Shown: positions 2,406 through 24,637 of the stretch, piece by piece
How positions within the stretch are numbered: the first letter of the stretch is position 1
How the letters are laid out: the number at the start of each line of letters is the position of its first letter
NCBI GenBank assembly: GCA_030390025.1
Contig: JASTWF010000334.1
Location: 434,001-498,000 of the forward strand
Direction of reading: 5' to 3'
DNA length: 64,000 nucleotides
Source of the DNA: Squalus acanthias
Lineage: Eukaryota
Notes under the pieces: model-generated
What the model was told of the DNA's origin: nothing
Databases searched by the model: none
Seen by the model: the letters and a program-made list of their open reading frames with translations, nothing else
Made by a program: the position numbers and the translations under genes

Positions 2406-2773
2406 TGTACCGCCCCGATCTCCTGCGCACGCAGATCTTGACGTCAGTCGAGCGTGCAACACCCTTGTGGCGACCCTGACCGGATGTTGAGTGGCGCCCC
2501 CCTCCTTTCCGCCTGGCGCAAGCAACAACAGGTAGACTGGAACATTTCCCAGTTGGTGTGGGGCTGGGGTGGGCGCTATTTAAAGGCGGCCTCTTCCTGG
2601 CTTTTTCTGTGGTAGACATTTTTGCACCACTCATTCTGACAGAGAGAGAGATTCTGAGGGAGAGGAGAGACTTCTGCATAGAGTCAACGCTGTGTGAAGT
2701 AGTTTTGGCTACTGAGCATCACTTTGCAGGTACTTTTGGATTTTGGCCTTCATTACTTTGATTCCCAAGAGAC

Positions 2774-3934
2774 TTGGGGGCTGCACTGATTCAGGGCGTC
2801 GTCCTGCGCCTGCAGATTTGGATGCAACATAGACGCAGAGAGAGAGTGGCAATCATGGCCAGACGGAGGAGGGCCAACAGACCTCTGTACAGGAGACCTT
2901 ACCCTCCCAGGGTCTTTCGCCAACAATTCTCCTACATTAATTTGTCTGAGGAGCAGTGTTTGCGCAGGCTGCGCTTCAGCAAGGAGGTAGTCACTGAGCT
3001 CTGCCACCTGCTGCAGCCAGATCTGCAGCCTCTACTGAGGACCAGGACGTCTCTGTGGGTGGCAGTGAAGGTCACAGTGGCTCTGAACTTTTATGCCACC
3101 AGCTCCTTTCAAGCAGCTACTGGGGACATCGCCAATATCTCCCAGTTCGCGGTCCATTGCTGCATCCGTCAGGTCACAAATGCCCTCTATAAAAGGAGAC
3201 GACAGTACATCTCTTTCCCGATGACCAGGGCCAAACAGCATGAACGCGCATTTGGGCTTTGCGAGGATAGCGGGCTTCCCCATGGTGCAGGGCGCCATTG
3301 ACTGCACGCATGTGGCATTGCGTGCACCGCATGAGAATGCAGAGGATTTCCGCAACCGCAAGGGGTTCCACTCCTTAAACGTTCAGTTGGTCTGTGACCA
3401 CAGACAGCTGATACTCGCTGTCAATGCCCGCTATCCTGGCAGCAGCCACGATGCATTCATCCTGTGCCAGACTACTGTGCCAGAACTTTTCCAGGCATCG
3501 CATCAGCCAAGTGGTTGGCTCCTCGGGGACAAGGATTATCCACTGTGCACCTGGCTGATGACACCACTCCGTAACCCCAACACCCCTGCTGAGCTGCGGT
3601 GCAACGAGAGCCATCTCACCACCAGGAACATCGTTGTGCAGACGATCGGTGTGCTGAAGCAACGGTTCCGCTGTCTGGACCACTCAGGAGGAGCCCTGCA
3701 GTTCTCGCCTGAGCGAGTCTCCTTCTTCATAGTTGTGTGCTGAATGCTTCATAACCTGGCAATCCTCAGGACCCAGCCAATGCCACCAGGCCTTGGAGCA
3801 CCACTGTGGAGGAGGAGGAGGAAGAGGAGGAGGAAGAGGAGGATGATCATCAGCAGCACCAAGGCGGGAGGGAGGCCCACAATGTTGAAACTGCAAGGGC
3901 CATCTGTCAACGGCTGATAGCAAGCCGCTTCTAG
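2774..3934 (+). pseudogene. Harbinger (HARBI1-like) DDE transposase, disrupted
   Basis: GAIDCTHV, RNRKGFHSLNVQLVCD, PGSSHDAFI, LLGDKDYP, IGVLKQRFRCLD, C*MLHNLAI, acidic tract, ..QRLIASRF* (TAG 3932-3934). Frameshift ~3245, stop 3741-3743, frameshift ~3808. Confidence 0.9.
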
Positions 3935-3962
3935 GCCGCTTCTGAGGAAATGGCTTCTGGCA

Positions 3963-5673
3963 TGTAGAATTCGCAATATATCACGATTTTATAAATAAGG
4001 AGAAAACACATAGTTTCGTTCAAACAGCTTTTATTTCAGCAGAATGCTGTCAGGTTTTCAAAGTGGACACAAGCAGCTTGTAAAATGGCCGCCACGCCTC
4101 GTGGCAGAACATTCTAGACTTTTCGACAGGCAGACAAGATGGCGTTCCAATAAACATTTGTGCAAGATCGATCAAGACTCAGCACATTTAAGATAATACA
4201 CGAGACATCATGGGTTTGCAGTATACACATAAATACTGAAATCGGTCTCCCAGGTGCGAATAAGGGCTATTGTACCAAGTAATCAAGAACCCATCCAAAG
4301 ACATTAATATGCAAAATCCCAACGACTCTACGATGAGAGAGCCGTTAGCGGGTAGTTACAGAAAACATGTGGAAGCCCCAAAACCCCTCCAGGGAGAACA
4401 CCGACCGATTAAACAATGGGAAAAGTATTAACAGGTACTCAGACAATTACGAGTATCCCCGAAACCCATTAAAACGGAGATCACCCTATACAAGAAATTT
4501 GAGCGCCAAACCCTAACAAAAGACAAGACATTAAGGTTGGGCGGGAAAAGGAAGATTTTGCACTATAACTGCAAGCTCCAACCGTCCATCTTTCTCTTAT
4601 CCTCTTATTCGGTTGACTCTTATCCTCGTGGCTGCTCCTGTTGCTCTTATCCTTTCGACTCCTTGCCGCCTGCCTCGTGTCTCTGCCTCTTGCAGCTTTT
4701 AAAGACTGTTGAACTTTACGATCCGCTCGGATCTACCTCGTGGCGTGCCGCGAAGATCTGTGTGGAACTGGGCTCTGAAGCCTTGAAGCGGGCGCACCAT
4801 CCCGAGAAGTCGGTAAACGGTGTTGGAACCGAAGGCCCGAGATGAGATGAGATGAGATGAGATGAGATGAGAAGAGAAGAACACCATACGTATTGCCACG
4901 GTCAGTAAGCTCCGACCGCGCCTGTAGGTCAAATAGACACTTTCCTTGCCAGGAAGACTTCTTCGAGTTTTACAGAACTGCCAGGAAGACTATTCTTCGA
5001 ATTCTATCGCATCAGTGCGAGGGCACAGGAAGACTCTTTTTTGAGCAGTGTCGGAACTCCGAGGACAACACAGATCTTCATGACAGCAGACGGTCCAGCC
5101 TGCTAGCCGGAGCAGAAACGAGTAAACAAGTGGGGTACAGAGACCTCTGATCGACACGTGGGTGCTGCGGTGAAAAACATCCGATCAGAGTTTTCGGAAT
5201 TCTCCGAGTTATCACGAGTGGTGAGCATGAGTCTCGATCCTACAAATCTAGCTTAGGGCAGATATTGATAGGGGAGGGTTTAAGTTTTAAGGATAATTGT
5301 AATGTGTGCCCCCATTTACGATGTGTCGTTCGTTCCTCGTTTCCCTGAAATTAGTTACATAACTGCGTGTAAGATTGTACTGTCATTAATCTGTGCTTAT
5401 GACATGTATTTCGTAATCTTAAATAATATGCAATAAAGATTTTCCATTTCGTACCATTCAACCGGGTCTACCTGAGTTTTACCTCCATTACTGCTCTCGC
5501 ATCTAAGTCCAGTGTCAGAACTGTAAGGGCGAGTGGGTCGAACCACTCACAGGTGTCTAGTGCTCCCAGACTAGCTGGAGACCAGAACAGGCGACAAGGC
5601 CTAACCTCGCACTAGCATCCAGGCTGCACAGAGCCACACGAATCTCACAGGTTCAGAGAGAAAAACCCTTACA
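3963..5673 (+). repeat. Outer provirus 5' LTR (1711 bp)
   Basis: TGTAGAATT...CCCTTACA; near-identical to 24638-26348; TATAA 4564-4568, (GAGAT)n 4839-4872, AATAAA 5432-5437. Confidence 0.97.
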
Positions 5674-5677
5674 GAAA

Positions 5678-7482
5678 ATGGCGACCGCGGCAGGACACTG
5701 GCAGCGAGAGGGTAGTGTGTTGGACTTTGGTGTGAATGTACGAAATGTCATGCAGGAAAAGATAGCAGATTATGTGTTCGGAAAGGTAAATTTAACTAAG
5801 AAATGGATAAGTGACCTGTTAGCGGATAAGAGTCCACTAGAGGCAGCCGAGAGGTGGACAGATAGTAAGGAACATAAAAAGACAGTCGAGAAAGCGGTCT
5901 GGTTAATGTGTTATAAAAGACAAATCCAGATTTCAAACCAGGTCATTACAGCGCAAACAGCTCGGATCAGGCATTTAGAGGAGGAAATGGACGAGAAGGT
6001 CTCTGGAGGGGAGTTGCTCATTAGGAATTTAAGCGCGTTGCACCGAGAACGCCAGGAAATCACCAGTCACCATAAAGCAAAAATAGATTACCTCGAGTGC
6101 CAGGTCACTGAGGCAAAGTTAAGTGAGGGCAGACTAAAGGAACGATGTGCCCGCCAAGCTGCCCAAATAAAAGCCCAGGAAGAGAGCTTAACGGGAGTTA
6201 GGGCGGCATATAAGATGGCTCTTGAGGATAAGTTTCAGGGGGCCGATCATAGCGTCTGCCAAAAGGAGATAGAACACCTTAAAAGGGCCGTGAACAAAGC
6301 GCACGGCATGGTGTGCCTTATCAGTCCATCAGCACACCAGCCACTAGTAGATGAGGAGTTTCAGAAATTCCCACCCAATAAAGCAAAGGAAGTATTAGCC
6401 ACTACGCCCTCCGCGCCACCCAGCTATTCGGAAACCTGGGTAAGGGAGGAAGTAGTAGAAGAAACGAAAGAGCCCACTGAGGGAGAAGTGGAAAAGGGAC
6501 CGTTGTGTTCGGTTACGGGTATCAAAAGGGGCCCAAACGGGAACGGTGGGGAACAAGGGGATCTCCTCAACCAGCTTGTGTTGCCTCACAGCTCACACCA
6601 GCTGAGGGTTATGATAAGTCACGTACGGAAGCTGACCGAATCAGACGACTCTTCCGTACATTTCAGGGAAGTTGAGCAACCGCAGCCATTAACGGCTGCG
6701 ACGATGGGGAAACAGCAAAGATGCTGTTATTTTCATTAGGTAGTTCGATCCTTCAGTGTCTCTCGGACGAGAGCAAGAGAGGAACCAAAAAATATGAGGC
6801 ACTAAAAAATGAGGTCCTAGAAGTATTGGGGACGGACGATGAAGGTCCGTTTGTTAGAGTGGGACAGACAGTGCAGATGGAGGGAGAACCCCCGAAGGTT
6901 TTCGCCGACAGGCTGTGGCCAGTATATCAGCGCAGCTGTCCAGGTGTGCCAGAGCGCGACGATGTGGAAGGCGTCGGTTTAGCTCATTGGCTCAGGTGTA
7001 TAGTAGCCAACAGTTTGCCAGCCGTCAGAGAGCAGGCAAAAGCGTGGTTTGATCCCACTGACCCCAACATTACGGAGGAGTCGGTCTTAAATCGACTCAC
7101 GGTAGGATACCGTAATATCAGGGGTATGGGAACACGTCCCCTTAAGGGAAAGGTACATGAGGTACGACCCGCAGCCCCGGCTCAAAAGGAGTGGCATCAG
7201 GAGGGTAACCGCGCCCCGCAGGCAAGTAATGCTTGTTACGGGTGTGGGAGGACAGGGCACTGGCGCAAGAACTGCAGGAACCCTTGGAAGGATTCCAGGG
7301 ATAAAAATCCCGCAGCCCGAGCCCAGATGCCTGTCTCTGTTAGGGAAGCTAGTGCACCCACCCCTCCCGACGACCTCGAAACAGTGTTGGGAGCCATGCG
7401 CAACTTCATGAGTGCGCATGGAAAAGTGGCGGTTGCTACCGGCCCCGCAGGTGCCACAGGCCCGTCTAACAATACCCAATGA
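5678..7482 (+). pseudogene. gag: gag of outer provirus (1-bp deletion frameshift ~6680)
   Basis: ORFs 5678-6739 and 6721-7482 join into the equivalent of the intact inner Gag (GAGCAACCG vs GAGCAAGCCG); coiled-coil, PSAPPSY, QMEGEPPKVFADRL, zinc knuckle CYGCGRTGHWRKNC. Confidence 0.93.
5679..5696 (+). promoter_or_regulatory. Primer binding site, complementary to the 3' end of tRNA-Arg(TCG)
   Basis: TGGCGACCGCGGCAGGAC is the reverse complement of GTCCTGCCGCGGTCG-CCA, the vertebrate tRNA-Arg(TCG) 3' end (recalled, not searched); starts 5 nt after the LTR. Confidence 0.85.
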
Positions 7483-10400
7483 CTAGAGCCCGCGCAGTCC
7501 GTCTACCTGTGTCCGCTCAGCTATGATGCGTGGAAGCGACCCTTGGTGGAAATGGAGGTAGAGAAACAGAAGGGTAGTTATTTGTTGGACACGGGAGCTT
7601 CTTGCACCGTGATTCATACAGATAGCCCTTTTGACTCACCGCTATCTACCAAGGTCCCATTCACATTAGCGGGGTTCACGGGAAAAGAACAGGCTGGCGC
7701 GTTCTCCCTTCCGCTATCCATTCGTTTGGGAGCACTCCACATCAAGTGGAAGTGCATACTGATGGAATGGCAGGAGGGGGGTGGGAGAGGTATCCTCGGG
7801 TCCGATCTCCTATCAGGACACGGGATCCTCGTGGACCTCAGGAATTACTGTCTCTGGGGGGCTAAGAGTGAAGAAGGCGAGGTAGTGGTAATTCCGGGGG
7901 AGGAAGAAACAGGGGTCCTGTGTACCATGCAGCCATCCGGAGGGTACGACCTCGGGCTTATGGTCGCAGATGTCCCAACGGACATGCAAACGTACGTGTC
8001 AGATAATATGCACGCGTTTGCAACCCACAAGCACGATTGTGGGAGGGTTACCGGGTTTGAGGTCAGCGTAGATGGGGACCCCATGACCCGGCCCCAAAAG
8101 CAGTATAACTTCCCCAAAGAAGCAGAACCCGATATGGAGACAGCAATGTCCTCCTTGGTGCAGCAGGGCGTGTTGAGGCCGATAGCCACACACGTGAACT
8201 CCCCATTATGGCCAGTTAGGAAGCCGGATAATTCGTGGAGGGCCACGGTGGACTACAGAGTCCTTAACAGTAACATTCCCGCCTGCGCGCCCACGGTAGC
8301 AGCAGTTGCTGACCTAATAGGGAGTATCCCAGCGTCCGCGACCACGTTCACGGTGCTGGATATCTCGAACGGTTTTTGGTCCATCCCGCTGCGGCGAGAG
8401 GACCAGTACAAGTTTGCCTTTACTTTCAAAGGACAACAGTACACATGGAACTGTCTGCCACAGGGTTTCCACAATAGCCCCAGTATTTTCCATCAGTGTA
8501 TGGCAGGAAGTTTAAAGGAGTTTAGTCAGCCCAATCAGATAGTGCAGTACGTGGATGATTTGCTCCTATTTACGGATTCAAAGGAGGAGCATGGACTACT
8601 ACTGGCCGAGTTATTGGAGCTGCTAGCGAGAAAGGGTTTCAAAGTAAATCCTAAGAAAGCACGTATCGGTCAGCAGGAAGTAAAATTCCTGGGGCTGACC
8701 ATTCGCGCTGGGGAAAGAGCCATAGATAAAGCTAGGAGGGAGTCGGTGCAAGAGTTACCGATTCCCAACACCATAAGGGGTGTGAGGTCCTTCTTGGGAC
8801 TGACCGGTTACTGCAGGGATTTTATCGAAGACTATGCGGCCACAGCGGCGCCGCTCCTCCGACTCCTCCATAACGGAGTGGAGTGGTCTTGGGACGAGGG
8901 CTGCCAAGCAGCTTTCGAGAAGTTAAAAAGGGATCTGCAGACCGCGCCAGCCTTAGGGGCCATAGATGGGGGGAAGTAGTTTTTCCTGGAGGTAGCTGCC
9001 AGCGGGGACAGCTTGAGCACTGTGCTGCTCCAAGAGCGTTACGGCAAGCTGAGGCCGGTTGTCTATTCGTCCAGGGTGTTAACGGATGTGGAGAGCAGTT
9101 TCTCCAATTGCGAAAGGCACCTTTTAGCCACGCATTGGGCTGTGAAAAGATCAGCGATCTTCACAGGGCTCTCTCCCATCACTCTCCTCACCCATCATAC
9201 ACCAACTAAGATGCTTCTAGACGGGAGAATTAAAGATGGGACCGTAAGCAGCGTGCGCATTGCGCGCTGGACCCTTCTTCTTTCCCAGATGGATCTTAGA
9301 GTAAAAGGTCTTTGCGAGCCCAGGCTTGCGGCCAATTTGGTATACCCCGGTACAGCCCACCGGTGTTCGGTGGAAGGGGTGTGGGACGTCAACATAGGTT
9401 TGCGGGCCGGGATACATCCCACTGGGCGCGAGATTTATGTTGATGGTTCCAGCACAGTATCTGCTGGCGAACGACTCACAGGGTGTGGAGTTTATGACCC
9501 TGCGGCAAACCTTGCCCTGGCGATCAAGCTCCCTAGCACCATGAGCGCGCAGCAGGCTGAGCTGTCTGCAGTGGTGTACGTCGTTACCCACCCAGACATT
9601 TTCCCAACCCCATACACGATTTGCTCGGACAGTATGTTCACATGTAATTCGTGTACGGAATACCTGGCCATTTGGTCCCGCCGTGGATACACCTCCGCGG
9701 ACGGGCGACCTTTAACGGTGAAGCCCTTGCTGGAAAAGATCCTAGCAGCAGTAGGGGAGGAAGGGGAGATTTTCATCCATAAGGTGAAGGCTCACTCCTC
9801 CACAGAGCCCCGTGGGGAGGGCAACCAGCAGGTGGATGCGCTAGCCAGGGAAGGTGCCCACAACGGCATTTTCTGGGACCCCTATGGGACCAGACCCATG
9901 GCAGCGATCCAAGGCAGGGACGGGAATCCCGGGAACACCAGGGTAGCATTGCCCCTAGACCTTAAGACCGTCCAGAACCAGGATCCCACCCTAAAAGCAG
10001 TCCTCAAAACCATTGCTGAGGGGAAGCAGGTAGAGGGTCCGTACAGTACGGCAACCCTCTCAGTTAAGGAAGGCATGCTGTTCCGCGAGGAGCAGTGGGT
10101 TGTGCCGCAGCAGCACAGGAGGGAATTCCTCCAGTTGGCTCACGAGGGACCAGGGGCAGGGCACCCCAGGCCCGAGGTTACCTGGCAACGGGTAGAGCAA
10201 GCGGGATGGTGGCCAGGGCTCAGGGAACAGGTCCGCGAGTTCTGTGCAAGCTGTCTCGTGTGCGCTGCAAACAACCCAGACCCCCAGAAAAGGAAAGTGC
10301 CCATGGGGCATGTAAGAAGGGTAGAGGGACCATGGCAGTCGATACAGATCGACTATATAGGGCCCCTGCCCACCACCCAGGGAGGCTATAAATACTGCCT

Positions 10401-11818
10401 CGTCTTGGTGGATGTGTTTTCCAAATGGGTGGAAGCCTTCCCCTGTCGAACAGCTACGGCACTGGGTACTGCAAAAATCTTGGTCCGGGAAGTATTCTCG
10501 CGGTGGGGACTCCCCCGTTTTGTGGAGTCAGACCAAGGGAGTCATTTCACCGGCCAGGTGATGCAGAACACCCTCATGCTTTTGGGCATTGAAGGGAAAT
10601 GGCACGTAGCGCACAATCCCCAGTCATCCGGGATTGTTGAACGCATCAACCGGACCCTGAAGGAGAAATTGAGGAAAGAGACTAGGAACTCGCCCCAAAA
10701 ATGGGCGGAGGTTCTGCCTTTAGTCCTCATGGGGGTCCGGGCCAGTCAGTCAAAAAGTACGGGGTATTCGCCGCACGAAGTGATGACTGGGAGGATCATG
10801 CGAACCCCCACCCATGTGCTAGCGCCGGTGCTCACTGAGGGTCAGCTCCAAGAGATAAGCAGGGACAAGTTCGCCCAGACCCTCTTGGAGCGCCTGAAGC
10901 AGGTTTATGAGCAGGCGGCTGGGAACATGGGAAGGCAGCATCAGGGCAATCGCCTGTTGCTGGAACCCCGCAAAACGCGGGAGTGGGAAGTAGGAGACCA
11001 GGTTATGGTCAGAAACTACGCCAGAGTAGGGAGTCTGGAACCACTGTATATGGGACCCTACAACATTGTCGATAAGGCGAGTCCCATGGTTTACGCCGTA
11101 AAGGTACCTCGGCGCACTAAGTGGTTCCACGTAAACCAGTGCAAACTGTACAAGCCAGGTGCACAAGGGAAAACCACAGGGGCAAAACCTGCGAGTGGGG
11201 ACTCGCAGCCCCAGGTAGGACCACAAGGCACACAAGCAGGCAAAGCAGCTTGCATCAGGGAAGGAGACATCCTGGAAAATTGTGAAACATTTTTGTGGGG
11301 TTGGGAGTCAGATGAGGGAGAGTTCCAGGAACTCGAGTCAGATGAGGATAGTGATGAGGACGAGTGGGAATCGGGGAACGCAAGGGTCGCCCCCAATTCA
11401 GGTATAGGGAGGACTGGGGCTGCAGATAGAGATCCACACAGGGTGGACACCGAGGCTGCAGGTCCCGCACACAGGAGGGAGGAGCTAGGGGAGGCGGAGC
11501 CAGCCACTGTGGGACCACAGGGCGTGACGGCGGAAACCTCAGAGCCCGAGCCGCCCGCCTTGAACGTCCTGCCCTCGAGGGAGGTAGGGACTGCGAGTGG
11601 AGGTTCGCCTGCTGGGCCGAGCAGGGCGGTGCCACAAGCTGCAGGTCCCGAGGTCAGGGAGGCGGAGTCAGGGGAGACGGAGCCAGCGACTGTGGTGGGA
11701 CCACAGGTCGTCCCGGTGGAAGTCCCGGAACCCGGTCCGTCAGTCCTGGGTTTCCTGCCCCCGACAACTCCTCGTAGGTCAAGTCGGGCACCCCAGCCCA
11801 GGAAGATGTGGTCATGTC
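7483..11818 (+). pseudogene. pol: pol of outer provirus: PR-RT-tether-RNase H-IN plus acidic/Pro-rich tail; in-frame TAG 8977-8979; tail cut by the inner element (resumes 21344 to ~21495)
   Basis: LLDTGAS, LPQGFHNSP, YVDD; degenerate first RH (LEVAAS..RPVVYSSR..RIARW); second RH (YVDGS, SAQQAEL, SDS, KVKAH, GNQQVDALA); IN H..H..CxxC, IDYIG, SDQGSHF, GIVERINRTLK, GPY. Confidence 0.95.
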
Positions 11819-13568
11819 TGTAGAATTCGCAATATATCGCGATTTTATTAATAAGGAGAAAACACAGAGTTTCGTTCAAACAGCTTTTATTTCAGCAGAA
11901 TGCTGGCAGGTTTAAAGTGGACACAAGCAGCCTGTAAAATGGCCGCCGCACCTCGTGACAGAACATTCTAGACTTTTCAACAGGCAGACAAGATGGCGTT
12001 CCAATAAACATTTGTGCAAGATCGATTAAGATTCAGCACAGTGAAGATAATACACGAGACATTATGGGTTTGCAGTATACACATAGATACTGAAATCGGT
12101 CTCCCAGGTACAAAGGAAAGCCATTGTACCGAGTAATCAAGGGCCCATCCAAAAGACATTAATATGTAAAATCCCAACGACTCTACGATGAGAGAGCCGT
12201 TAGCAGGTAGTTATACAGGACACTTGGAAGCCCCAAACCCCTCCAGGGAGAACACCGACCGATTTAACAATGGGAGAAATATTAACAGGTACTCAGACAT
12301 TTACGAGTAGCCCCGAAACCCATTAAGAACGGAGATCACCCATACAAGACATTTGAGCGCCAAACCCTAAACAAAAGAATGGACATTATAGTTGGGCAGG
12401 AAACGGAAGATTTTGCACTATAATTGCAGGCTCCAAACCGTCCATGCTCTTGCTCTTGCTCTTGCTCTTGCTTTTGCTCTTGCTGCTCTTATCATCGTGG
12501 CTGCTCCTGTGCTCTTATCCGATCGATTCGTAAACCTCGTGGCTGCTCCTGTGTACTCGTAGTTGGGCTCGCCCCTGCTTGCCTGTTGCCTCTTCTGAAA
12601 AGACTGTTGAACTTTCTGATCCGTTCGGATCTACCTCGTGTCGCGTAACGAAGACCTATGTTGGTAACTGGCAGCGGAACCGAAGGCCCGAGATGAGATG
12701 AGATGAGATGAGATGAGATGAGAAGAGAGGAAGACCATATCCATCGCCACGGTCAGTAAATCCCGACCGCGCCTGTAGGTCGATTATCCAAGTTTTCCTT
12801 ACTAGGAAGACTTCTTCGAACTTATAACGAAACATATTGCATCGATGATAACTGGACTGTGCCCAAAGTAACTGGAATGTGAAAACATATCGTATCGACG
12901 ATATTGACAACTGTGCTCCAAGAGTACCTGTTAAACCAACCAACACAGGTCTTCATCACAGCAGACGGTCCAGCCTGCTAGCCGGAGCAGCAGAAGCAAG
13001 TAAACAAGTGGGACCAGGAGATCTCCTGACCGACACGTGGGTGCTGCGGTGAAAAACATCCGATCAGCTATTCGGAATTTCTCCGAGTTATCACGAGTGG
13101 TGAGCATGAGTCTCGAAATCCTACGAATCTAGTTTAGGATAGATATTGATAGGGGAGGGTTTAAGGATTAAGGATATTTGTAATGTGTGCCCCTATTTAC
13201 TTTGTGCCGTTCGTTCCTCGTTTCCCTAAGATCGACTATATAACTGTTTGTAAGATTGTACTGTCATTAATCTGTGCTTATGACATGTATTTCATAATCT
13301 TAAGTATCATGCAATAAAGATTTTCCATTTCGTACCATTCAAACCAAGTCTACATGAGTTTCATCTCCATTACTGCTCTCGCATCTAAGTCCAGTGTCTA
13401 GAACCGTAAGGGAGAGTGATTCGAACCACTCACAGGTGTGTCTAGTGTTCCCAGACTGGCTGGAGACCAGAACAGGCAACAAGGCCTAGACCCGCACTGA
13501 CATACAGGCTGCACAGAGCCGCGTGAATCTCACAGGCTGCGAGACACGCACGGTCAGAATCCCTTACA
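11819..13568 (+). repeat. Inner provirus 5' LTR (1750 bp)
   Basis: TGTAGAATTCGC...CCCTTACA; essentially identical to 19590-21339. Confidence 0.97.
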
Positions 13569-13572
13569 GAAA

Positions 13573-15384
13573 ATGGCGACCGCGGCAGGACACTGGCAGC
13601 GAGAGGGTAGTGTGTTAGATTTTGGAATGACTGTACGAAATGTTATGCAGGAAAAGATAGCAGATTATGTGTTTGGAAAGGTTAATCTAACTAAGAAATG
13701 GATAAGTGAATTGTTAGCGGATAAGAGCCCACTAGAGGCAGCTGAAAGGTGGACAGATAGTAAAGAACATAAAAAGACACTTGAGAAAGCAGTCTGGCTT
13801 ATGTGTTACAAAAGGCAGGTTCAGATTTCCAACCAGACCATTACAGCGCTAGTAGCTCGAATCAGTCATTTAGAGGGAGAAATGGAGGAGAAGGTTTCTG
13901 GAGGGGAGGTGCTCATTAAGAATTTAAATGAGTTACACCAAGAAAGCCAGGAAGTCTCCAGTCACCTTAAAACAAGGATAGATTATCTCGAGTGCCAGGT
14001 CACTGAGGCAAAATTGAATGAGAGCAGGTTAAAGGAAAGATGTAACCGCCAAGCTGCCCAGATAAGAACTCAAGAAGAGAGCTTGACGGGGGTTAGGGCG
14101 GCATATAAGTTGGCCCTTGAGGATAAGTTTCAGGGAGCCGATCATAGCGCCTGCCAAAGGGAGATAGAGCACCTCAAAAAGGCCGTGAACAATGCGAACG
14201 GCATGGTGTGCCTTATCAATCCGTCGGCGCACCAGCCGCTAGTAAATGAGAGATTTAGAAAATCCCCACCAAGTAAAGCAGAAGAAGTAGTAGCCACTGC
14301 GCCCTCCGCGCCACCCAGCTATTCAGAAACCTGGGTTAGGGAGGAAGCAATGGAAGAAACAAAAGAGCCCATTGAAAAAGAAGTAGGAAAGGGATCGTTA
14401 TATCCAGTAACGGGTATTAAAAGGGGCCCAAGCAGAAACGGTGGGGAAGAACCGGGGGATCTCCTCGGACAGCTGGTGTTGCCTCACAGTTCACATCAGC
14501 TGAGAGCTATGATAAATCACGTACGGAAGCTGACCGAGGCAGACGACCCTTCCGTACATTTCAGAGAAGTTGAGCAAGCCGCAGCCATTAACGGCTGCGA
14601 TGATGGGGAAACAGCAAAAATGCTGCTGTTCTCATTAGACAGCTCGGTCCTTCAGTGTCTCTCAGGCGAGAGCAAGAGGGGAACCAAGAGTTATGAGGAA
14701 TTAAAGAATGAGGTCCTGGAAGTGTTGGGGGCGAACGACGAAGGTCCGTTTGCTAGAGTGGGACAGACAGTGCAGATGGAGGGAGAACCCCCGAAGGTTT
14801 TTGCCGACAGGCTGTGGCCAGTATATGAGCGCAGCTGTCTAGGTGCGCCCGAGCGCGAAGATGTGGAAGGTTTAGCTTTAACTCATTGGCTTAGGTGCAT
14901 AATAGCCAACAGTTTACCAGCCGTCAGAGAGCAGGCAAAAGCATGGTTTGATCCCAATGACCCCAACATTACGGAAGAGTCGGTCTTGAATCGACTCACG
15001 TTAGGTTATCGCAATATAAGGGGTATGGCAACACGTCCCCTTAAGGGAAGAGTACATGAGGTACGACCCGCAGCCCCGTATCAAAGAGAGTGGCATCAGG
15101 AGGGTAATCGCGCCCCACAGGCAAGTAATGCTTGTTACGGGTGTGGGAAGACAGGGCACTGGCGCAAGCATTGCAGGAACCCTTGGAAGGATTCCAAGGA
15201 TAAAAATCCCGCGGTCCGAGCCCAGGCGCCTGTCCCGGCTAAGGAAGCCAAGGCACCCACCCCTCCCGACGACCTCGAAGCAGTGTTAGGAGCCATGCGC
15301 AAGCTGGTCTTGAATGCGCGTGGACAGGTGGCGGTCGCAACCGGCCCCGTAGGTGCCGCAGGACTGTCTAATAGTACCCAATGA
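13573..15384 (+). CDS. gag: Intact Gag (603 aa), inner provirus
   Basis: Uninterrupted ORF; coiled-coil, PSAPPSY (14302-14322), capsid MHR-like motif, CYGCGKTGHWRKHC knuckle. Confidence 0.93.
   Translation: MATAAGHWQREGSVLDFGMTVRNVMQEKIADYVFGKVNLTKKWISELLADKSPLEAAERWTDSKEHKKTLEKAVWLMCYKRQVQISNQTITALVARISHLEGEMEEKVSGGEVLIKNLNELHQESQEVSSHLKTRIDYLECQVTEAKLNESRLKERCNRQAAQIRTQEESLTGVRAAYKLALEDKFQGADHSACQREIEHLKKAVNNANGMVCLINPSAHQPLVNERFRKSPPSKAEEVVATAPSAPPSYSETWVREEAMEETKEPIEKEVGKGSLYPVTGIKRGPSRNGGEEPGDLLGQLVLPHSSHQLRAMINHVRKLTEADDPSVHFREVEQAAAINGCDDGETAKMLLFSLDSSVLQCLSGESKRGTKSYEELKNEVLEVLGANDEGPFARVGQTVQMEGEPPKVFADRLWPVYERSCLGAPEREDVEGLALTHWLRCIIANSLPAVREQAKAWFDPNDPNITEESVLNRLTLGYRNIRGMATRPLKGRVHEVRPAAPYQREWHQEGNRAPQASNACYGCGKTGHWRKHCRNPWKDSKDKNPAVRAQAPVPAKEAKAPTPPDDLEAVLGAMRKLVLNARGQVAVATGPVGAAGLSNSTQ
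13574..13591 (+). promoter_or_regulatory. Primer binding site (tRNA-Arg), inner provirus
   Basis: TGGCGACCGCGGCAGGAC, identical to the outer PBS. Confidence 0.85.
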
Positions 15385-16377
15385 CTAGAGCCCACGCAGC
15401 CTGCCTACCTGTGTCCTTTTAAAAGACACGCACAGGAGGGGGTCTGCGGTGAGGAGGCCAGGTTAAAAGAGCAGGCCTTGCGGGAGGAGAACGCCCGCTT
15501 AATAGGGAAAATAGATGGGCTGGAAGGGCAGCTTAGAGAGCAGGCCCTGCGGGAGGAGAACGCCCGAGCAATGGGAAAGTTAGACGTGCTCAGGCTAGAA
15601 GCGCAGCTTAGTGAGATAAAAGCAGCCTACAGGGTAGCCAAAAGCCGGGAGTATGAGGATGTAAACCAATGCAAACTGTACCAGCCAGGTGCGCAAGGGA
15701 AAACTACAGGGGTAAATCCCGCCAATGGGAAAGCACAGCCCCAGGTAGGACCACAAGGCACACAGGCAGGCATAGCAGCTTGCATCAGGGGAAGGGACAT
15801 CCCGGACGATCATGCAGCGTTTTTCTGGAATTGGGGGTTAGATGAGGAAGAATTCAGGGTACCCGGGTCAGATGAGGATAGTGCAGATGAGGATAGTGAT
15901 GACGACGGGTGGTTTCGGAGGAACGGTCCCTTTTACGATATGGAGGGGACGGGGGCTGCAGGTAGAGATCCACACAGGGTGGACACACGAGCTGCAGGTC
16001 CCGAAGACAGGAGGGAGGAGCTAGAGGAGGCAGGGCCAGCCGCTATGGGAGCACAGAGAGTACCGGTGTGGCTCCCAGAGATGTGGCCGCCCGCTTTGAA
16101 CGTCCAGTCCTCAGGGGAGGCAGAGATCACGAGTGAAGGGCCGCCTGCTGGGCCGAGCAGGGCGGAGCCACGAACTGCCAGCCCCGAGGTTAGGGAGGCG
16201 GAGTCAGCGGAGGCGGAGCCAGCGACTGTGATGGAACCCCAGGTCATCCCGATGGAAGTCTCGGAACCCGGTCCGTCCGTCACGGAAACCCCGCCCATAG
16301 CAACTCCCCGTAGGTCAAGTAGAGAACCCCAGGAGGATGTGGTCATGTCCCCAGACTGCCCCAAGGCGGAAATTTAA
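15385..16377 (+). CDS. In-frame post-Gag ORF: pol N-terminal stub + novel coiled-coil + integrase C-terminal tail (no enzyme domains)
   Basis: Open from the gag TGA to TAA 16375-16377: LEPTQPAYLCP (pol stub), EQALREENAR x2..IKAAYRVAK, then VNQCKLY.. homologous to outer 11131 onward. Confidence 0.75.
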   Translation, partial: LEPTQPAYLCPFKRHAQEGVCGEEARLKEQALREENARLIGKIDGLEGQLREQALREENARAMGKLDVLRLEAQLSEIKAAYRVAKSREYEDVNQCKLYQPGAQGKTTGVNPANGKAQPQVGPQGTQAGIAACIRGRDIPDDHAAFFWNWGLDEEEFRVPGSDEDSADEDSDDDGWFRRNGPFYDMEGTGAAGRDPHRVDTRAAGPEDRREELEEAGPAAMGAQRVPVWLPEMWPPALNVQSSGEAEITSEGPPAGPSRAEPRTASPEVREAESAEAEPATVMEPQVIPMEVSEPGPSVTETPPIATPRRSSREPQEDVVMSPDCPKAEI

Positions 16378-16628
16378 GGTTAAGATAACCCAGATACAGA
16401 CCGGCCACATCGCAGCAGTAACAGGCTGCGGCAGATCAGAGGGAAGGGTCAGTGCCCTCCCACCGTCGGGAAGAGCTCGCAGCAGCCTTCTCAGAATTTA
16501 AAGGGGCCGCCCTGAGAACGGGTGGCACTGTATAGTAAGTAGTAATAAGTTTAAGTTTATAGTTCAAGGTTAAGTTTTATGTTTTATTAAGGTTAAGTTT
16601 GTCGTGTTTTTTAACAGAAAACGATAAA

Positions 16629-19140
16629 ATGATGGGAGCTTTAAAGATAGGTTTAGTTGAAGTTTATTCAGCGAACGTTGAAGTTTACGTGAGGCGAGGT
16701 CAGGGGACCCGCTCACCCTTCACAAAAGCCAGAGACTCTTGCGAGGCTGGCTACCTCATTCTATCTGATCACAGGAACCAAGGAAGGATGGAACGAATTC
16801 TAGTATTGCTCGTGGCAATCGGATGTGGATTGGCCTATCGAGGCCGCACCAAGGATGTCGTGGTGTTTGGATGTTCCGGGGACACGGCCCCCATCGCGGT
16901 GGATGGGACCGGAAGACGGGAGGCAGAGGAGACCAGCACCTATTTCCACAAGGGAAGGTGGCCAGGATGGCTGGGAACGAACTCAACGGAGTATTCCAGC
17001 ACATCGGGGTTTGCCTACCAAGAGACTTCTTTACTGTGCCCCAAAGTAAGGATCATCGCACCCAGGATCAGCGTCACCGTCGGCAAACGGATTTGTTTGA
17101 CTTGTAGTGGGAAGGTCCCATTGAGCCGATGGTGGTGGCTGCGAAAGCTGAGCAAAACTATGAGGAACTCTTCGGTCGAGTGGGAACGACTGGGTAATAA
17201 TACCCATCGGACAATTACGGGGACAGACGGACAAGTGAAAGTCTGTTGGGACAAATGGTGGGAACCGGATGAGGGAATTTATGTATGTATGTGGGGGTCA
17301 AAGTACGTTTGCCCCAAAGGCATCTCCATATTTTTCATTAATCAATGGCAGGATAACGGACAGGGGATGAGGTGGGATGCGAGCACCAGGGGGTGCGGAG
17401 CCCCATTCTCCCCGATCCCAGTAAATGCCACTGAGCTCATTACGCGCCCACGCAAAGCCCCGCCCACGATTCCGGTGGTTCTAGCTGAGGAAGAAGGGTG
17501 CCCTAAAACTAGTAAGGGACCCGGGAATGGTTTGGTACTGGTCCCCACAGACCAGATACTATTTCAGGGGGTACATTACGCGGTGGCCTCGGTGATTTTA
17601 AATCTCACTGAGGTGCGGTTACCAGAGTGGTGCCCCAAAAAGACGGAACAGTTGTACCAGGTCCTGTTGACCAAGATGTTCAGACAATTTTACGAATTCG
17701 ATTTCGCGGAAATTGATAAAACAAGTTTGTACACCGCACCACAGGAAGTTTTGGATCAAGTAGGGAGGCAAAGAAGGGGTTTGGTGAACGATGCGTTCAC
17801 TGCTTTTAACACAGGTACATCTGTGGTCAACGCTCTAGACAGTGTGGAGCTGCAGACCCAGATTAATGGTTTAAAGACACAATTAAAGGACATTCTAACA
17901 GATGAGAATAAAGTGGTAGGGTCGGGTCTACACGAGGACCAAGCCATGACCCTCCATTTAAAGGAAATTATAGCAGAGTTGGAGAAACATGCAAAGACGG
18001 TAAATGCCCTGATTAGGGAAGATCGGAATGCATCCGATCAAGCTGCGCAGAACGAGGTGTGCGTGCTTTACGGGGCGTGGTTACTGGGCGAGGGCCGCAG
18101 TAATTTGGAGGATTTAAAACAAGGTTTGGTTCCGTCCTGGATAAGTAACAAACACCTACGGGCGCTCCACCCTTTTCAGAACGCATTAAGCCCGTGCCAG
18201 CTCAGGCTAGCTTCAGAAGCATACCCAGTCCCCGTGGACTGTGGACGATCAAACCATACCATCATGGGTATAGTTTTACGTATGCCGGTTTTGGGCGACA
18301 CAGCAAAGCCCGCCCCGGTATATCGGGTAGAAAACATTGGTGTCATTCAGGGGGGGAGCCCACATTCGTTATGCAGCGGTTCCACCTTACGTCATCCGCT
18401 GGGAGCAAACGATGACAGGTACAGATCTCTCTGGTTGTCGTGGCAGGGGAGCACACATAATACTGTGCCCCCAGCACTTGAATGCCTTTTTAACACCACA
18501 GTGCGGGTTCAGAACGGCTGGCGCCAAGTCCATGAATTGCACCATGGAGGCAATGGCACAAGATCATGTGCCTCCGCAGGTAGCATACATCGGGGGTGGA
18601 ACATATTGTGTTACCACTGCAGCGCAACACTACCAGCATGGAAACCGTAGCCGGTGTCCGGTGAGTGACAGCAGTTTCTGTTTTAAACCCAGGGCGGAAG
18701 TTCAAGTAGCACAACAGCGAATTATCCCAATCCCTGAACCATCCACTGTTCATCTCACAGTAAAAGAGAATTTCACCGACTTGCAGCGATTCGTCGCGCA
18801 TTTTGGATACCTCATTCCCCCTCTCCCTGAACACCTCACCAAGCTTTTGAAAGCCGTCGCGGTGTCACAGAAACATTTTTATACATTAGAGCAGAAAACT
18901 GTCGAAATAGGAACAGACATTTTGGATATAGTAGTTCCACCGTGGTGGAATCTGTTCACCAATATTGAAGTACCTTCATGGATCAGAATAGCCTCCCACA
19001 TTTTAGTCGTATGCCAAGTTTTCATTGTAGTGTACCTATTGGTCGTACATTGTAAAAGAGACAAACGCCTCACCAAGCATGAAAACACGGGAGAGTGGCG
19101 AGAACGTTACGTGCGCGTGCACGATGAGAGCACCGTGTAA
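16629..19140 (+). CDS. env: env of inner provirus (one extra G in a G7 run ~18350 shifts frame; mutation or homopolymer error)
   Basis: Signal-like MERILVLLVAIGCGLA (16788), Ig motif, furin RQRR 17766-17777, fusion peptide and heptads, Cys-rich region, TM ILVVCQVFIVVYLLVV; candidate splice acceptor TTTTAACAG just upstream. Confidence 0.88.
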
Positions 19141-19577
19141 TCGGAAAATGGCGTCACTCCCGCTCGCCGCGTGCGCCGCGGAAGTTTGTACTCATATAAG
19201 ATTTTCAGAGATTGTAAATACGTTGGGAACTCGACATGTTAAGAGTTGGTGTTGATTTATTTTGGTGATGGTGTTACAGTTAAAAATGATTGTTTGGTTT
19301 TGGGTTTTGTTTTTCCTTTCCCTGAATAAAAGATGAATATACAGGTGATACGAGAGGCATCGGCCTGGTTACGCCGGGAAGGAAAACAAGTGGTGTAAGT
19401 TTAAGGGCAAATAATGCCTACGGTGATATAAAATGTAATTTTCTTGGGAAATGAGGACGACACAGAGACCCTAGCTAAGTTAAAATTATGGGATTAATTT
19501 ACTGGATTCGGAGAGAAATCGAGATAATATTGCTCACCACTATGATTTTTGATACGATAAGCGGAGTTATTCGCATC

Positions 19578-19589
19578 AACAGGAGGGAC
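19578..19589 (+). promoter_or_regulatory. Polypurine tract, inner provirus
   Basis: AACAGGAGGGAC abuts the 3' LTR; the same sequence is at 24626-24637. Confidence 0.8.
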
Positions 19590-21339
19590 TGTAGAATTCG
19601 CAATATATCGCGATTTTATTAATAAGGAGAAAACACAGAGTTTCGTTCAAACAGCTTTTATTTCAGCAGAATGCTGGCAGGTTTAAAGTGGACACAAGCA
19701 GCCTGTAAAATGGCCGCCGCACCTCGTGACAGAACATTCTAGACTTTTCAACAGGCAGACAAGATGGCGTTCCAATAAACATTTGTGCAAGATCGATTAA
19801 GATTCAGCACAGTGAAGATAATACACGAGACATTATGGGTTTGCAGTATACACATAGATACTGAAATCGGTCTCCCAGGTACAAAGGAAAGCCATTGTAC
19901 CGAGTAATCAAGGGCCCATCCAAAAGACATTAATATGTAAAATCCCAACGACTCTACGATGAGAGAGCCGTTAGCAGGTAGTTATACAGGACACTTGGAA
20001 GCCCCAAACCCCTCCAGGGAGAACACCGACCGATTTAACAATGGGAGAAATATTAACAGGTACTCAGACATTTACGAGTAGCCCCGAAACCCATTAAGAA
20101 CGGAGATCACCCATACAAGACATTTGAGCGCCAAACCCTAAACAAAAGAATGGACATTATAGTTGGGCGGGAAACGGAAGATTTTGCACTATAATTGCAG
20201 GCTCCAAACCGTCCATGCTCTTGCTCTTGCTCTTGCTCTTGCTTTTGCTCTTGCTGCTCTTATCATCGTGGCTGCTCCTGTGCTCTTATCCGATCGATTC
20301 GTAAACCTCGTGGCTGCTCCTGTGTACTCGTAGTTGGGCTCGCCCCTGCTTGCCTGTTGCCTCTTCTGAAAAGACTGTTGAACTTTCTGATCCGTTCGGA
20401 TCTACCTCGTGTCGCGTAACGAAGACCTATGTTGGTAACTGGCAGCGGAACCGAAGGCCCGAGATGAGATGAGATGAGATGAGATGAGATGAGAAGAGAG
20501 GAAGACCATATCCATCGCCACGGTCAGTAAATCCCGACCGCGCCTGTAGGTCGATTATCCAAGTTTTCCTTACTAGGAAGACTTCTTCGAACTTATAACG
20601 AAACATATTGCATCGATGATAACTGGACTGTGCCCAAAGTAACTGGAATGTGAAAACATATCGTATCGACGATATTGACAACTGTGCTCCAAGAGTACCT
20701 GTTAAACCAACCAACACAGGTCTTCATCACAGCAGACGGTCCAGCCTGCTAGCCGGAGCAGCAGAAGCAAGTAAACAAGTGGGACCAGGAGATCTCCTGA
20801 CCGACACGTGGGTGCTGCGGTGAAAAACATCCGATCAGCTATTCGGAATTTCTCCGAGTTATCACGAGTGGTGAGCATGAGTCTCGAAATCCTACGAATC
20901 TAGTTTAGGATAGATATTGATAGGGGAGGGTTTAAGGATTAAGGATATTTGTAATGTGTGCCCCTATTTACTTTGTGCCGTTCGTTCCTCGTTTCCCTAA
21001 GATCGACTATATAACTGTTTGTAAGATTGTACTGTCATTAATCTGTGCTTATGACATGTATTTCATAATCTTAAGTATCATGCAATAAAGATTTTCCATT
21101 TCGTACCATTCAAACCAAGTCTACATGAGTTTCATCTCCATTACTGCTCTCGCATCTAAGTCCAGTGTCTAGAACCGTAAGGGAGAGTGATTCGAACCAC
21201 TCACAGGTGTGTCTAGTGTTCCCAGACTGGCTGGAGACCAGAACAGGCAACAAGGCCTAGACCCGCACTGACATACAGGCTGCACAGAGCCGCGTGAATC
21301 TCACAGGCTGCGAGACACGCACGGTCAGAATCCCTTACA
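19590..21339 (+). repeat. Inner provirus 3' LTR (1750 bp)
   Basis: Direct repeat of 11819-13568, followed by TSD TGTC. Confidence 0.97.
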
Positions 21340-21652
21340 TGTCCCCAGACTGCCCCAAGGCGCAGGCTCAAGGTTAAGGCAGCCCAGGAAGGGCCCAGTC
21401 CCATCGCAGCAGCAACAGGCTGCGGCAGATCAAAGGAAGGGGTCAGTGCCCTCCCACTGTCGGGAAGAGCTCGCAGCAGCCTTCTCAGAATTTAAAGGGG
21501 CCGCCCTGGGAACGGGCGGCGCTGTACAGTTTATAAGTTTCTAGGTTTATAGTTTAAGGTTAAGAATAAGTTTATAGTATTAGATAAGGTTATAAGTTTA
21601 TAGTTTTAAATCAGGTTACGTTTGTAGTTTAATTTTAACAGAAAATGGTAAA

Positions 21653-24190
21653 ATGATGGGAGCTTTAGAGATAGGTTTAGTTAAAGTTTATTCAGCGAAC
21701 ATTGAAGTTTACGTGAGGCGAGGTCAGGGGACCCGCTCACCCTTCACAAAAGCCAGAGACTCTTGCGAGGCTGGCTACCTCATTCTATCTGATCACAGGA
21801 ACAAAGGAAGAATGGAACGAATTATAGTATTGCTCGCGGCAATCGGATGTGGATTGGCCTATCGAGGCCGCACCAAGGATGTCGTGGTGTTTGGATGCTC
21901 CGGGGACACGGCCCCCATCGCGGTGGATGGGACCGGAAGGCGGGAGGCTGAGGAGACCACCACCTATTTCCACAAGGGAAGGTGGCCAGGATGGCTGGGA
22001 ACGAACTCAACGGAGTATTCCAGCACATCGGGGTTTGCCTACCAAGAGACTTCTTTAATGTGCCCCAAAGTAAGGATCATCGCACCCAGGATCAGCGTCA
22101 CCGTCGGCAAACGGATTTGTTTGACTTGTAGTGGGAATGTCCCATTGAGCCGATGGTGGTGGCTGCAAAAGCTGAGCAAAAACATGAGGAACTCTTCGGT
22201 CGAGTGGGAACGACTGGGTAATAATACCCATCGGACAATTACGGGGACAAACGGACAAGTGAGAGTCTGTTGGGACAAATGGTGGGAACCGGATGAGGGA
22301 ATTTATGTATGTATGTGGGGGTCAAAGTACGCTTGCCCCAAAGGCATCTCCATATTTTTCATTAATCAATGGCAGGTTAACGGACAGGGGATGAGGTGGG
22401 ATGCGAGCACCAGGCGGTGCGGAGCCCCATACTCTTCGATCCCGGTAAATGCCACTGAACTCATTACGCGCCCACGCAAAGCCCCGCCCACGATTCCGGT
22501 GGTTCTAGCTAAAGAGGAAGGGTGCCCTAAAACCAGTAAGGGACCCGGGTGCCCTAAAACCAGTAAGGGACCCGGGAATGGTTTGGTACTGGTCCCCACA
22601 GACCAGATACTATTTCAGGGGGTACATTACGCGGTGGCCTCGGTGATTTTAAATCTCACCGAGGTGCGGTTACCAGAGTGGTGCCCCAAAAAGACGGAAC
22701 AGTTATATCAGGTCCTGTTGACCAAGATGTTCAGACAATTTTACGAATTCGATTTCGCGGAAATTGATAAAACAAGTTTGTACACTGCACCACATGAAGT
22801 TTTTGATCAAGTGGGGAGGCAAAGAAGGGGTGTAGTGAACGACGCGTTCACTGCTTTTAACACGGGTACATCTGTGGTCAACGCTCTAGACAGTGTGGAG
22901 CTGCAGACCCAGATTAATGGTTTAAAGACGCAATTAAAAGACATTCTAACAGATGAAAATAAGGTGGTTGGGTCGGGTTTACACGAGGACCAAGCCATGA
23001 CTCTCCATTAAAAGGAAATTATAGCAGAGCTAGAGAAACACGCGAGAACGGTAAATGCCCTGATTAGGGAAGATCGGAATGCATCCGATCAAGCTGCGCA
23101 GAATGAGGTGTGCGTGCTTTATGGGGCGTGGTTACTGGGCGAGGGCCGCAGTAATTTGGAGGATTTAAAACAAGGTTTGGTCCCGTCCTGGATAAGTAAC
23201 AAACACCTGCGGGCGCTCCACCCTTTTCAGAACGCATTAAGCCCGTGCCAGCTCAGGCTAGTTTCAGAAGCATACCCAGTCCCCGTGGACTGCGGACGAT
23301 CAAACCATACTATCATGGGTATAGTACTACGTATGCCGGTTTTGGGCGACACAGCAAAGCCCGCCCCGGTGTATCGGGTAGAGAACATTGGTGTCATTCA
23401 CGGGGGAGCCCACATTCGCTATGCAGCGGTTCCACCCTACGTCATCCGCTGGGAGCAAACGATGACAGGTACAGATCTCTCTGGTTGTCGTGGCAGGGGA
23501 GCACACATAATACTGTGTCCCCAGCACTTGAATGCCTTTTTAACACCACAGTGCGAGTTCAGAACGGCTGGCGCCAAGTCCATGAATTGCACCATGGAGG
23601 CAATGGCACAAGATCATGTGCCTCCGCAGGTAGCATACATCGGGGGTGGAACATATTGTGTTACCACTGCAGCGCAACACTACCAGCATGGAAACCGTAG
23701 CCGGTGTCCGGTGAGTGACAGCAGTTTCTGTTTCAAACCCAGGGCGGAAGTTCAAGTTGCACAACAGCGAATTGTCCCAATCCCTGAACCATCCACTGTT
23801 CATCTAACAGTAAAAGAGAATTTCACCGACTTGCAGCGATTCGTCGCGCATTTCGGATACCTCATTCCCCCTCTCCCTGAACACCTCATCAAGCTTTTGA
23901 AAGCCGTCGCGGTGTCACAAAAACATTTTTACACACTGGAGCAGAAAACTGTCGAAATAGGGACAGACATTCTGGATATAGTAATTCCACCGTGGTGGAA
24001 TCTGTTCACCAACATTGAAGTGCCTTCATGGATCAGAATAGCCTCCCACATTTTAGTTGTATGCCAAGTGTTTATTGCAGTGTACCTATTGGTCGTACAT
24101 TGTAAGAGAGGCAAACGCCTCACCAAGCACGAAAACACGGGAGAGTGGCGAGAACGTTACGTGCGCGTGCACGACGAAAGCACCGTGTAA
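21653..24190 (+). pseudogene. env: env of outer provirus (nonsense TTA>TAA at 23009-23011)
   Basis: ORFs 21653-23011 and 23108-24190 share a frame; colinear with the inner env; 27-bp duplication GCPKTSKGP x2. Confidence 0.92.
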
Positions 24191-24625: not shown

Positions 24626-24637
24626 AACAGGAGGGAC
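24626..24637 (+). promoter_or_regulatory. Polypurine tract, outer provirus
   Basis: AACAGGAGGGAC directly before TGTAGAA. Confidence 0.8.

Follow-up and report, generated by a model that had tools for sequence, protein, structure and literature searches.

Retroviruses with an envelope protein (Env) resembling the fusion protein F of paramyxoviruses are known from two groups. The Env of lokiretroviruses was published as F-like (PMC7947760), and in Wang and Han's papers (PMC7947760, PMC9040795) no similarity was seen between loki and canonical Env and four scenarios for Env origin were left open. The F-like Env of foamy viruses was set apart from orthoretroviral Env, the two forming separate classes (Fernandez et al., PMC11468914). 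Endogenous retroviruses (ERVs) akin to snakehead retrovirus (SnRV) are known from the elephant shark (CmiERV lineage I, PMC4422223). We analysed a 64,000-nucleotide stretch of contig JASTWF010000334.1 (positions 434,001 to 498,000; the window), in which an earlier note had recognised at 7483-11130 the pol of a young retrovirus and assigned it to the loki lineage. ORF (open reading frame) lists, the sequence and its self-comparison show two nested proviruses, B (11819-21339) inserted within A (3963-26348), the pol in question belonging to A. We conclude that A is very probably a young, now broken ERV, whose reverse transcriptase (RT) belongs with the canonical class III/SnRV grade and not with loki, whose Env is a predicted paramyxovirus-F-type fusogen, and whose host is likely a cartilaginous fish.

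The placement of A is carried by its RT. The RT has the canonical signature LPQG/QYVDD/KxNPKK, with LPQGFHNSP at 8455 and YVDD at 8548 (RVT_1, E 9e-37), as the earlier note had it. LPQG is common to the RT rows of the window, SnRV, gamma-, epsilon- and foamy viruses, and the SnRV row additionally shares LDISNGFWSI, LPQGFH and QYVDD with A; all 24 of 24 loki RT rows in the PMC7947760 supplement have PFG. RT identity was 33% to loki (87/262, 88/262 and 64/194), 43% to SnRV (114/264) and 52% to frog and coelacanth ERVs, with scores of 280-307 bits for the frog and coelacanth ERVs, 221 for SnRV and 157-163 for foamy viruses. Two protein searches with the RT (41 matches, and 135 of which the best 120 were listed) returned shark, frog and coelacanth ERV proteins, Heptranchias among the sources, and SnRV Pol (P0056); the loki motif occurred in none of these 161 proteins (the second set being the best 120 of 135). 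Relatives were also found in Scyliorhinus torazame, Chiloscyllium punctatum and Rhincodon typus, which are among the six chondrichthyan genomes of which none was scored loki-positive in Fig. S1 of PMC7947760.

For the trees, 27 of the 161 proteins were dropped for covering less than 75% of the RT, and redundant rows were thinned by hand. Loki loci were fetched by a motif scan, in which three of five matches were loki (L002, L003 and L006), near-identical by eye to the Loki-Sau, Loki-Pfl and Loki-Sri rows; these three records come from a metagenome collection and contain loki pol and env, with an open pol frame of 1745 codons in L003. A further scan yielded 42 loci that include gamma, delta, foamy, walleye and SnRV genomes. 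Walleye dermal sarcoma virus (WDSV), SnRV, murine leukaemia virus (MLV), koala retrovirus (KoRV), reticuloendotheliosis virus (REV) and human T-cell leukaemia virus 2 (HTLV-2) were named by their match to supplement rows, and foamy viruses and walleye epidermal hyperplasia virus (WEHV) by motif, size and tree position. Loki was sister to a canonical clade that includes A in the tree of 72 rows (support 100/99), in that of 35 rows under a mixture model (100/98) and in that of 55 rows with foamy and walleye viruses added (100/99), which reproduces the published position of loki relative to canonical retroviruses. Approximately unbiased (AU) tests rejected the grouping of A with loki on RT (p 0.0126, 0.003 and 0.029). 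Within the canonical clade the neighbours of A were frog, coelacanth and other ERVs (98/89 with 72 rows, no support with 35), and A lay outside the class I and foamy clades of these trees, which held no class II. The RT stood apart from the gypsy rows at 100/100, in agreement with the earlier view of a retrovirus-type pol, and a Ty3/gypsy assignment was rejected on this ground. Assignment to Odin was rejected on another: A has an env and Odin does not (the trees held no Odin row). Judged from sequence, the RT placement already refutes the reading of A as a divergent loki element.

What had suggested loki was a set of three features, namely a tether with a second RNase H, a coiled-coil Gag and an F-like Env. 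Pfam finds in pol the protease, RT, tether (PF17917, PF17919), RNase H (PF00075) and the integrase zinc finger, core and SH3-like end. The Ty3/gypsy-like RNase H without its first catalytic Asp (LEVAAS at 8986), followed by a complete RNase H, is present as described, and so is the GPY integrase. When the tether (8884-9309; RT_RNaseH, E 3.8e-15) is compared with the Ty3/gypsy RNase H rows of the PMC7947760 supplement (xDAS...EKELL...TDH), three catalytic residues prove to be lost: the first Asp, the Glu (ERHLL) and the second Asp (LTHH). The second RNase H (9427-9864; RNase_H, E 5e-20) keeps four of four acidic motifs (YVDG, QAEL, CSDS and QVDA). The solved structures nearest to the RT by sequence are those of MLV/XMRV (xenotropic MLV-related virus) and foamy RT (~185 bits), ahead of Ty3 RT (127), and for the integrase foamy is again ahead of Ty3; relatives carry NYNRIN-like names. 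None of the three features is loki-specific. Tether and second RNase H are common to all retroviruses; SnRV Gag, read by eye, likewise combines a long stretch of coiled-coil type with a single zinc knuckle; and a predicted F-type Env, as described below, is not a loki hallmark. The loki label is not supported, and the proposed extension of the loki range to chondrichthyans falls with it.

The Env of A (21812-24190) has a signal peptide, an immunoglobulin (Ig)-like head, an RQRR cleavage site ending at 22828, an F-type fusion body with a long Cys-rich C-terminal part, and one transmembrane helix (residues ~739-766); a CX6CC motif is not present in it. The description of Env as F-like holds by structure modelling, with the correction that the env met first on the map, at 16788, is that of B. 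The model, built from 31 sequences (mean pLDDT (predicted local distance difference test) 66.8), matches F of human parainfluenza virus 3 (hPIV3), respiratory syncytial virus (RSV) and henipavirus (Foldseek E 2.6e-11; Z 12.9, root-mean-square deviation 6.3 over 323 residues), the solved foamy Env 8rm1 (Foldseek E 2.9e-7) and, among predicted viral structures, the Env of WEHV1 (E 6.5e-7) and of feline foamy virus (3e-4). By sequence the resemblance is faint: Pfam gave no family at E 0.05 for pieces of the window Env, PF00523 reaching only E 0.077; a sequence search of the PDB with the Env profile returned coiled-coil noise only; and a protein atlas recognised the Env body weakly, in glycoprotein clusters of mixed classes, and the N-terminal arm not at all. 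The Ig-like stretch lies in this arm (~22076-22340 in A, 17052-17340 in B); its best PDB match has E 0.11, most of the 50 matches being Ig chains, and frog relatives carry a clearer V-set domain at the same place (V-set E 0.045 in P0191, Ig_3 E 0.012 in P0045). Pol and Env are also linked outside the window: a canonical Pol model from Pyxicephalus carries at its end an Ig domain with 48% identity to the P0191 head, and a whale-shark gene model fuses pieces of Pol and Env.

Env searches returned 3 and 42 relatives. Of the 20 looked up, 14 came from sharks or a skate and two from frogs, and four had no species name (one being the Pol P0042); the genera were Mustelus, Chiloscyllium, Pristiophorus, Heterodontus, Scyliorhinus, Heptranchias, Rhincodon and Rhinoraja, the skate Rhinoraja giving the closest named Env (82-84%). 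Together with the RT match in Heptranchias, this makes a chondrichthyan host likely, without pointing to one species. A profile of the shark and frog relatives (A1) was run on 229 ORFs of the fetched loci. Its top ranks went to F-type retroviral Envs only. It scored loki Env at 34.5 and 32.0 bits, foamy Env at 4-22 (up to 21.7), WDSV Env at 16.5 and SnRV Env at 13.3, against best shuffles of 7.0, 2.4-3.9 and 7.5 (500 each) and 3.4 (1000), respectively; none of 14 gamma and delta Envs matched it at E below 5. The alignments run colinearly and take in cysteines and beta strands as well as heptads, and hhalign aligned SnRV Env with the family colinearly (90%, E 1.4e-6). A poor model of SnRV Env (pLDDT 54.8), guided by an alignment of our own and hence weak and non-independent support, had eight matches at E below 0.001, all to paramyxovirus F, with TM-scores of 0.16-0.22. 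The Envs of WDSV and WEHV1 look F-type as well (L075:5962-9650 by profile and BFVD Q9WHI8 by fold search, respectively); the source data of Viro3D score WDSV without an F-type match (PMC12583693). As sequence comparisons go, we regard the Env links to loki and foamy as firm and those to SnRV and WDSV as moderate.

Several results weigh against this account. The window Env alone matched no loki, foamy, WDSV or SnRV Env, and pairwise BLAST with SnRV Env was empty; this failure of a single sequence would account for the link having escaped pairwise searches. A profile of the 14 chondrichthyan rows only still gave loki 17 bits (significant) and one foamy Env 13, and with it SnRV (3.1) and WDSV (3.8) were not significant. 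Tether and integrase both score higher with loki (79-82 and ~202 bits) than with SnRV (38 and 127), the tether of foamy viruses reaching 3-13. Phylogenies of RT, RNase H and integrase, which the earlier note had proposed, do not speak with one voice: RT falls on the canonical side, RNase H joins a weakly supported group of loki and foamy (81/96; A with loki not rejected, p 0.32), and the integrase tree gives A no resolved position. A pairing of A with SnRV is absent from the three RT trees, the integrase tree and the RNase H tree, and on RT the AU test rejected neither A with SnRV (p 0.33) nor A with foamy (p 0.15). Gag has no significant match to SnRV Gag (1.8 bits) or loki Gag. The trees themselves contain three loki rows, all of the ray-finned type, while Odin and the alpha, beta and lenti genera have no row in them. 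The likeness to loki in tether, integrase and Env is genuine, but it looks like an ancestral state kept by both lineages.

A first alternative, that A is a diverged loki element which adds cartilaginous fishes to the loki range, would account for loki giving the best tether and integrase scores among the named references, for the highest Env profile score and for the RNase H tree, but it is contradicted by the RT motifs, identities, trees and AU tests, by a protease-RT region too short for loki Pol (RT begins at residue 245 of Pol here and at 677 in loki) and by relatives in species scored loki-negative; we consider it extremely improbable. A foamy-like ERV is hardly better placed. Its LTRs (long terminal repeats) of 1.7 kb and 4-bp duplication are values we take to be those of foamy viruses, foamy Env is F-related (PMC11468914) and is matched by our profile, and the RT grouping was not rejected. 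Against this, the foamy RTs stand apart on a long branch of their own (100/100), their RT scores are about half those of the frog and coelacanth ERVs and their tether scores minimal, and the Gag of A has a CCHC knuckle and lies in frame with pol, with no Spuma Pfam domains found in the proteins of the window and no accessory ORFs, so that a foamy origin is very unlikely.

A larger share of doubt goes to recombination, in which a canonical class III backbone would have captured env, and perhaps integrase, later from loki or another F-bearing virus. Such swaps are documented (XtERV-S combines a class III pol with a class I env, PMC8278194), env likely moved between the A and B lineages in this very locus, and the best outside match of Env is loki. 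Yet the kinship of the Env to loki Env is distant, without a pairwise match, the same pairing of pol and env occurs in frogs and sharks, and the same body is found in the Env of foamy viruses, WDSV and SnRV, which would require several independent captures; we hold this scenario possible, at roughly one chance in three. Whether A should be placed in the SnRV clade itself (Xu et al. 2018, clade Huo; Han 2015, CmiERV lineage I) is a matter of label, compatible with a class III/SnRV-grade ERV, and evenly balanced. SnRV has the closest RT of any named virus and shares the in-frame gag-pol stop, single knuckle, coiled-coil-like Gag and Arg/Pro-rich pol tail, its Env is colinear with the family, a quick RT tree with five retroviral rows missing put A with SnRV at 83 in the SH-like approximate likelihood ratio test, and members of clade Huo have been reported in every major vertebrate lineage (PMC6001957); but no careful tree unites the two, the tether is weakly similar and Gag without a significant match, and there is no 3' ORF of at least 150 codons between env and LTR.

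For a canonical-grade ERV with an F-type Env, we tentatively propose, at slightly less than even chances, that the shark, frog and coelacanth lineage is an early canonical branch that kept an ancestral kit shared with loki. As part of the same proposal, held just as tentatively, this kit would consist of a well-kept tether, an old-type RNase H, a NYNRIN-like integrase and an F-type Env. The Env family would then bridge loki, foamy, walleye epsilon viruses and SnRV, and the retroviral ancestor would have had an F-type fusogen, gamma/beta-type Env being a later replacement; by these comparisons, F-type Env may be ancestral in retroviruses.

Provirus A has the order LTR-gag-pol-env-LTR, with primer-binding site (PBS), polypurine tract and target duplications; the features of both proviruses lie on the forward strand, except the unstranded duplications. 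Its 5' LTR of 1711 bp (3963-5673; TGT...ACA, poly(A) signal at 5432) is followed after 5 nt by the PBS (TGG..., 5679-5696), which we take to match tRNA-Arg(UCG). Of 34 PBS matches in viral contigs, one lay at a tRNA 3' end, without a usable anticodon, and the host tRNA was not found in this way. The first gag ATG overlaps the PBS, 4 nt past the LTR (5674-5696 in A, 13569-13591 in B), so that nearly no leader exists outside the 1.7-kb LTR. Gag (5678-7482) has a coiled-coil-like N-terminal half, one CCHC knuckle and a frameshift near 6679. It ends in TGA (7480-7482), after which CTA G and pol continue in the same frame. Pol comprises the protease and RT part (7483-8883; protease DTG at 7588, RT core 8101-8892), tether, second RNase H and integrase with an acidic, Pro-rich tail (10114-11823; HHCC, D-D-35-E, GPY at 11053, SH3-like end). 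The domains claimed by the earlier note are thus present, although pol runs on to 11823 rather than ending at 11130 and contains a premature stop in the tether (8977-8979) that had been overlooked. The polypurine tract (24626-24637), identical to the sequence preceding the 3' LTR of B, leads into the 3' LTR (24638-26348).

B is inserted in the last codons of A pol. Its 5' LTR of 1750 bp (11819-13568) differs by one substitution from its 3' LTR (19590-21339) and is ~89% identical to the LTRs of A. Its gag is open (13573-15384, 603 codons; 88% DNA identity to A gag), and its pol is a remnant (15385-16377) of the first protease codons, a repeated helical block and the integrase tail, lacking RT, RNase H and integrase core; most of pol is replaced at 15421-15660 by the short helical repeat (EQALREENAR twice), in frame after the gag stop. 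Its env (16788-19140) contains the Ig-like stretch with weak support (~17052-17340). The 4-bp duplications noted earlier are real, GGCA flanking A (3959-3962 and 26349-26352) and TGTC flanking B (11815-11818 and 21340-21343).

A is disabled by the gag frameshift, the pol stop and an env stop at 23009-23011, and the env of B by a frameshift near 18350. The two LTRs of A differ by 13 substitutions (Kimura two-parameter (K2P) distance 0.0076), which bears out the earlier call of a young ERV: LTR divergence dates A to ~17 or ~8 and B to ~1.3 or ~0.6 million years at rates of 2.2e-10 or 0.5e-9, which are assumptions for sharks by the authors of PMC4422223 and PMC10699275, respectively. Between A and B, env is 96% identical (synonymous divergence dS 0.12), gag 88% (dS 0.34) and the LTRs ~89%; the low env dS relative to that of gag points to recombination between the lineages. 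The ratio of nonsynonymous to synonymous divergence (dN/dS) was 0.12 in env and 0.24 in gag (Nei-Gojobori, 780 and 596 codons), and purifying selection on env suggests spread by infectious particles.

Parts of gag-pol were present in 20 of 22 listed sequencing runs, and half or more of it in five, all from one organism; no RNA runs were among the listed holders, which says nothing on expression. Contigs of four runs covered 30 of 30 bins over 3001-23000, and among the joints listed none crossed either insertion point. Pieces of the element at 90% likeness numbered 29,489, 45,122, 8,247 and 1,754 in four runs from two organisms; these are not copy counts, and the large numbers are in line with a multi-copy family.

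The LTR would drive a genomic RNA, and Pol would be made by read-through of the in-frame gag TGA, as in SnRV, whose gag-pol junction has an in-frame TAG. The context TGA-CTA-G is a read-through signal. A tRNA would prime reverse transcription, the tether would act as the connection domain while the second RNase H degrades RNA, and integrase would cut the target with a stagger of 4 bp. Env, likely translated from a spliced RNA, would be cleaved at RQRR and fuse membranes by F-type refolding, with the Ig-like head as the likely attachment part. An A-type helper would have supplied the Pol that copied B in trans, and the env of B was likely acquired from the A lineage by recombination.

Further searches were negative. 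A separate smc-like gene, as some lokiretroviruses have, was not seen among ORFs of at least 150 codons, the coiled-coil-like stretch lying within gag. Three short DNA motifs had no matches in the CmiERV dataset, which shows little. Three motifs likewise had none in the supplements on ERV-Spuma.0-Sca, although these may lack the sequences; its authors group ERV-Spuma.0-Sca with foamy-like ERVs of fishes (PMC10699275). A remnant of a Harbinger-type transposase (2762-3743; DDE_Tnp_4, E 3.8e-30) immediately precedes the provirus, and Myb/SANT-like remnants lie beyond it (28069-28659 and 29334-29924). A 23-bp satellite occurs in opposite orientations at 30593-31122 (23 copies) and 38415-46284 (347 copies), surrounded by many LINE (long interspersed element) RT fragments.

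As SnRV-like ERVs were already known from the elephant shark, the locus adds little as a host-range record. In the literature searched, F-type retroviral Env appears for foamy and loki only; a lineage with canonical RT whose predicted F-type Env reaches those of loki, foamy, WDSV and SnRV makes the scenarios of Env origin testable. If the reading of F-type Env as ancestral is true, it would overturn the view in print that no similarity is detectable between canonical and loki Env, and infectious fish orthoretroviruses (SnRV, WDSV) would enter by an F-type protein. SnRV has already been grown in fish cells.

Among the closest known systems, the element resembles SnRV (L001/P0056, matching the SnRV row of the PMC7947760 supplement): RT 43% identical with the same motifs, an in-frame gag-pol stop, one CCHC knuckle, a GPY integrase with a basic tail and an Env of the same predicted F-type body. 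It also has the TGT...ACA LTR ends that are a class III trait (PMC8278194). SnRV differs in its longer Env (a frame of 1134 codons), its 3' ORF and its short LTRs, whereas A has 1.7-kb LTRs, a gag start at the primer site, a far better kept tether and no 3' ORF. Loki (PMC7947760, PMC9040795; L002, L003 and L006) shares the tether with second RNase H, a probably NYNRIN/CGIN1-like integrase and an F-like Env with an RxxR site, homologous by profile (34.5 bits), but differs in RT (33% identical, PFG versus PQG, separate clade) and in a Pol much longer before RT; the F body of L003 Env starts near the N terminus, whereas the window Env has ~250 extra residues with the Ig-like stretch. Foamy viruses (Spumaretrovirinae) share the F-type Env core (up to 21.7 bits) and the weak RNase H group, but have their RT on a separate branch and differ in Gag, protease, pol expression and accessory genes. 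The epsilonretroviruses WDSV and WEHV are linked by Env, through the profile for WDSV (16.5 bits, colinear) and the fold search for WEHV1 (E 6.5e-7), while in RT, RNase H and integrase they belong to class I. Finally, paramyxovirus and pneumovirus F (hPIV3 1ztm, RSV 3rki; PF00523) agree with the window Env in predicted fold and order of elements, at 7-15% identity and a PF00523 match of only E 0.077, the window Env being distinguished by its extra N-terminal arm.

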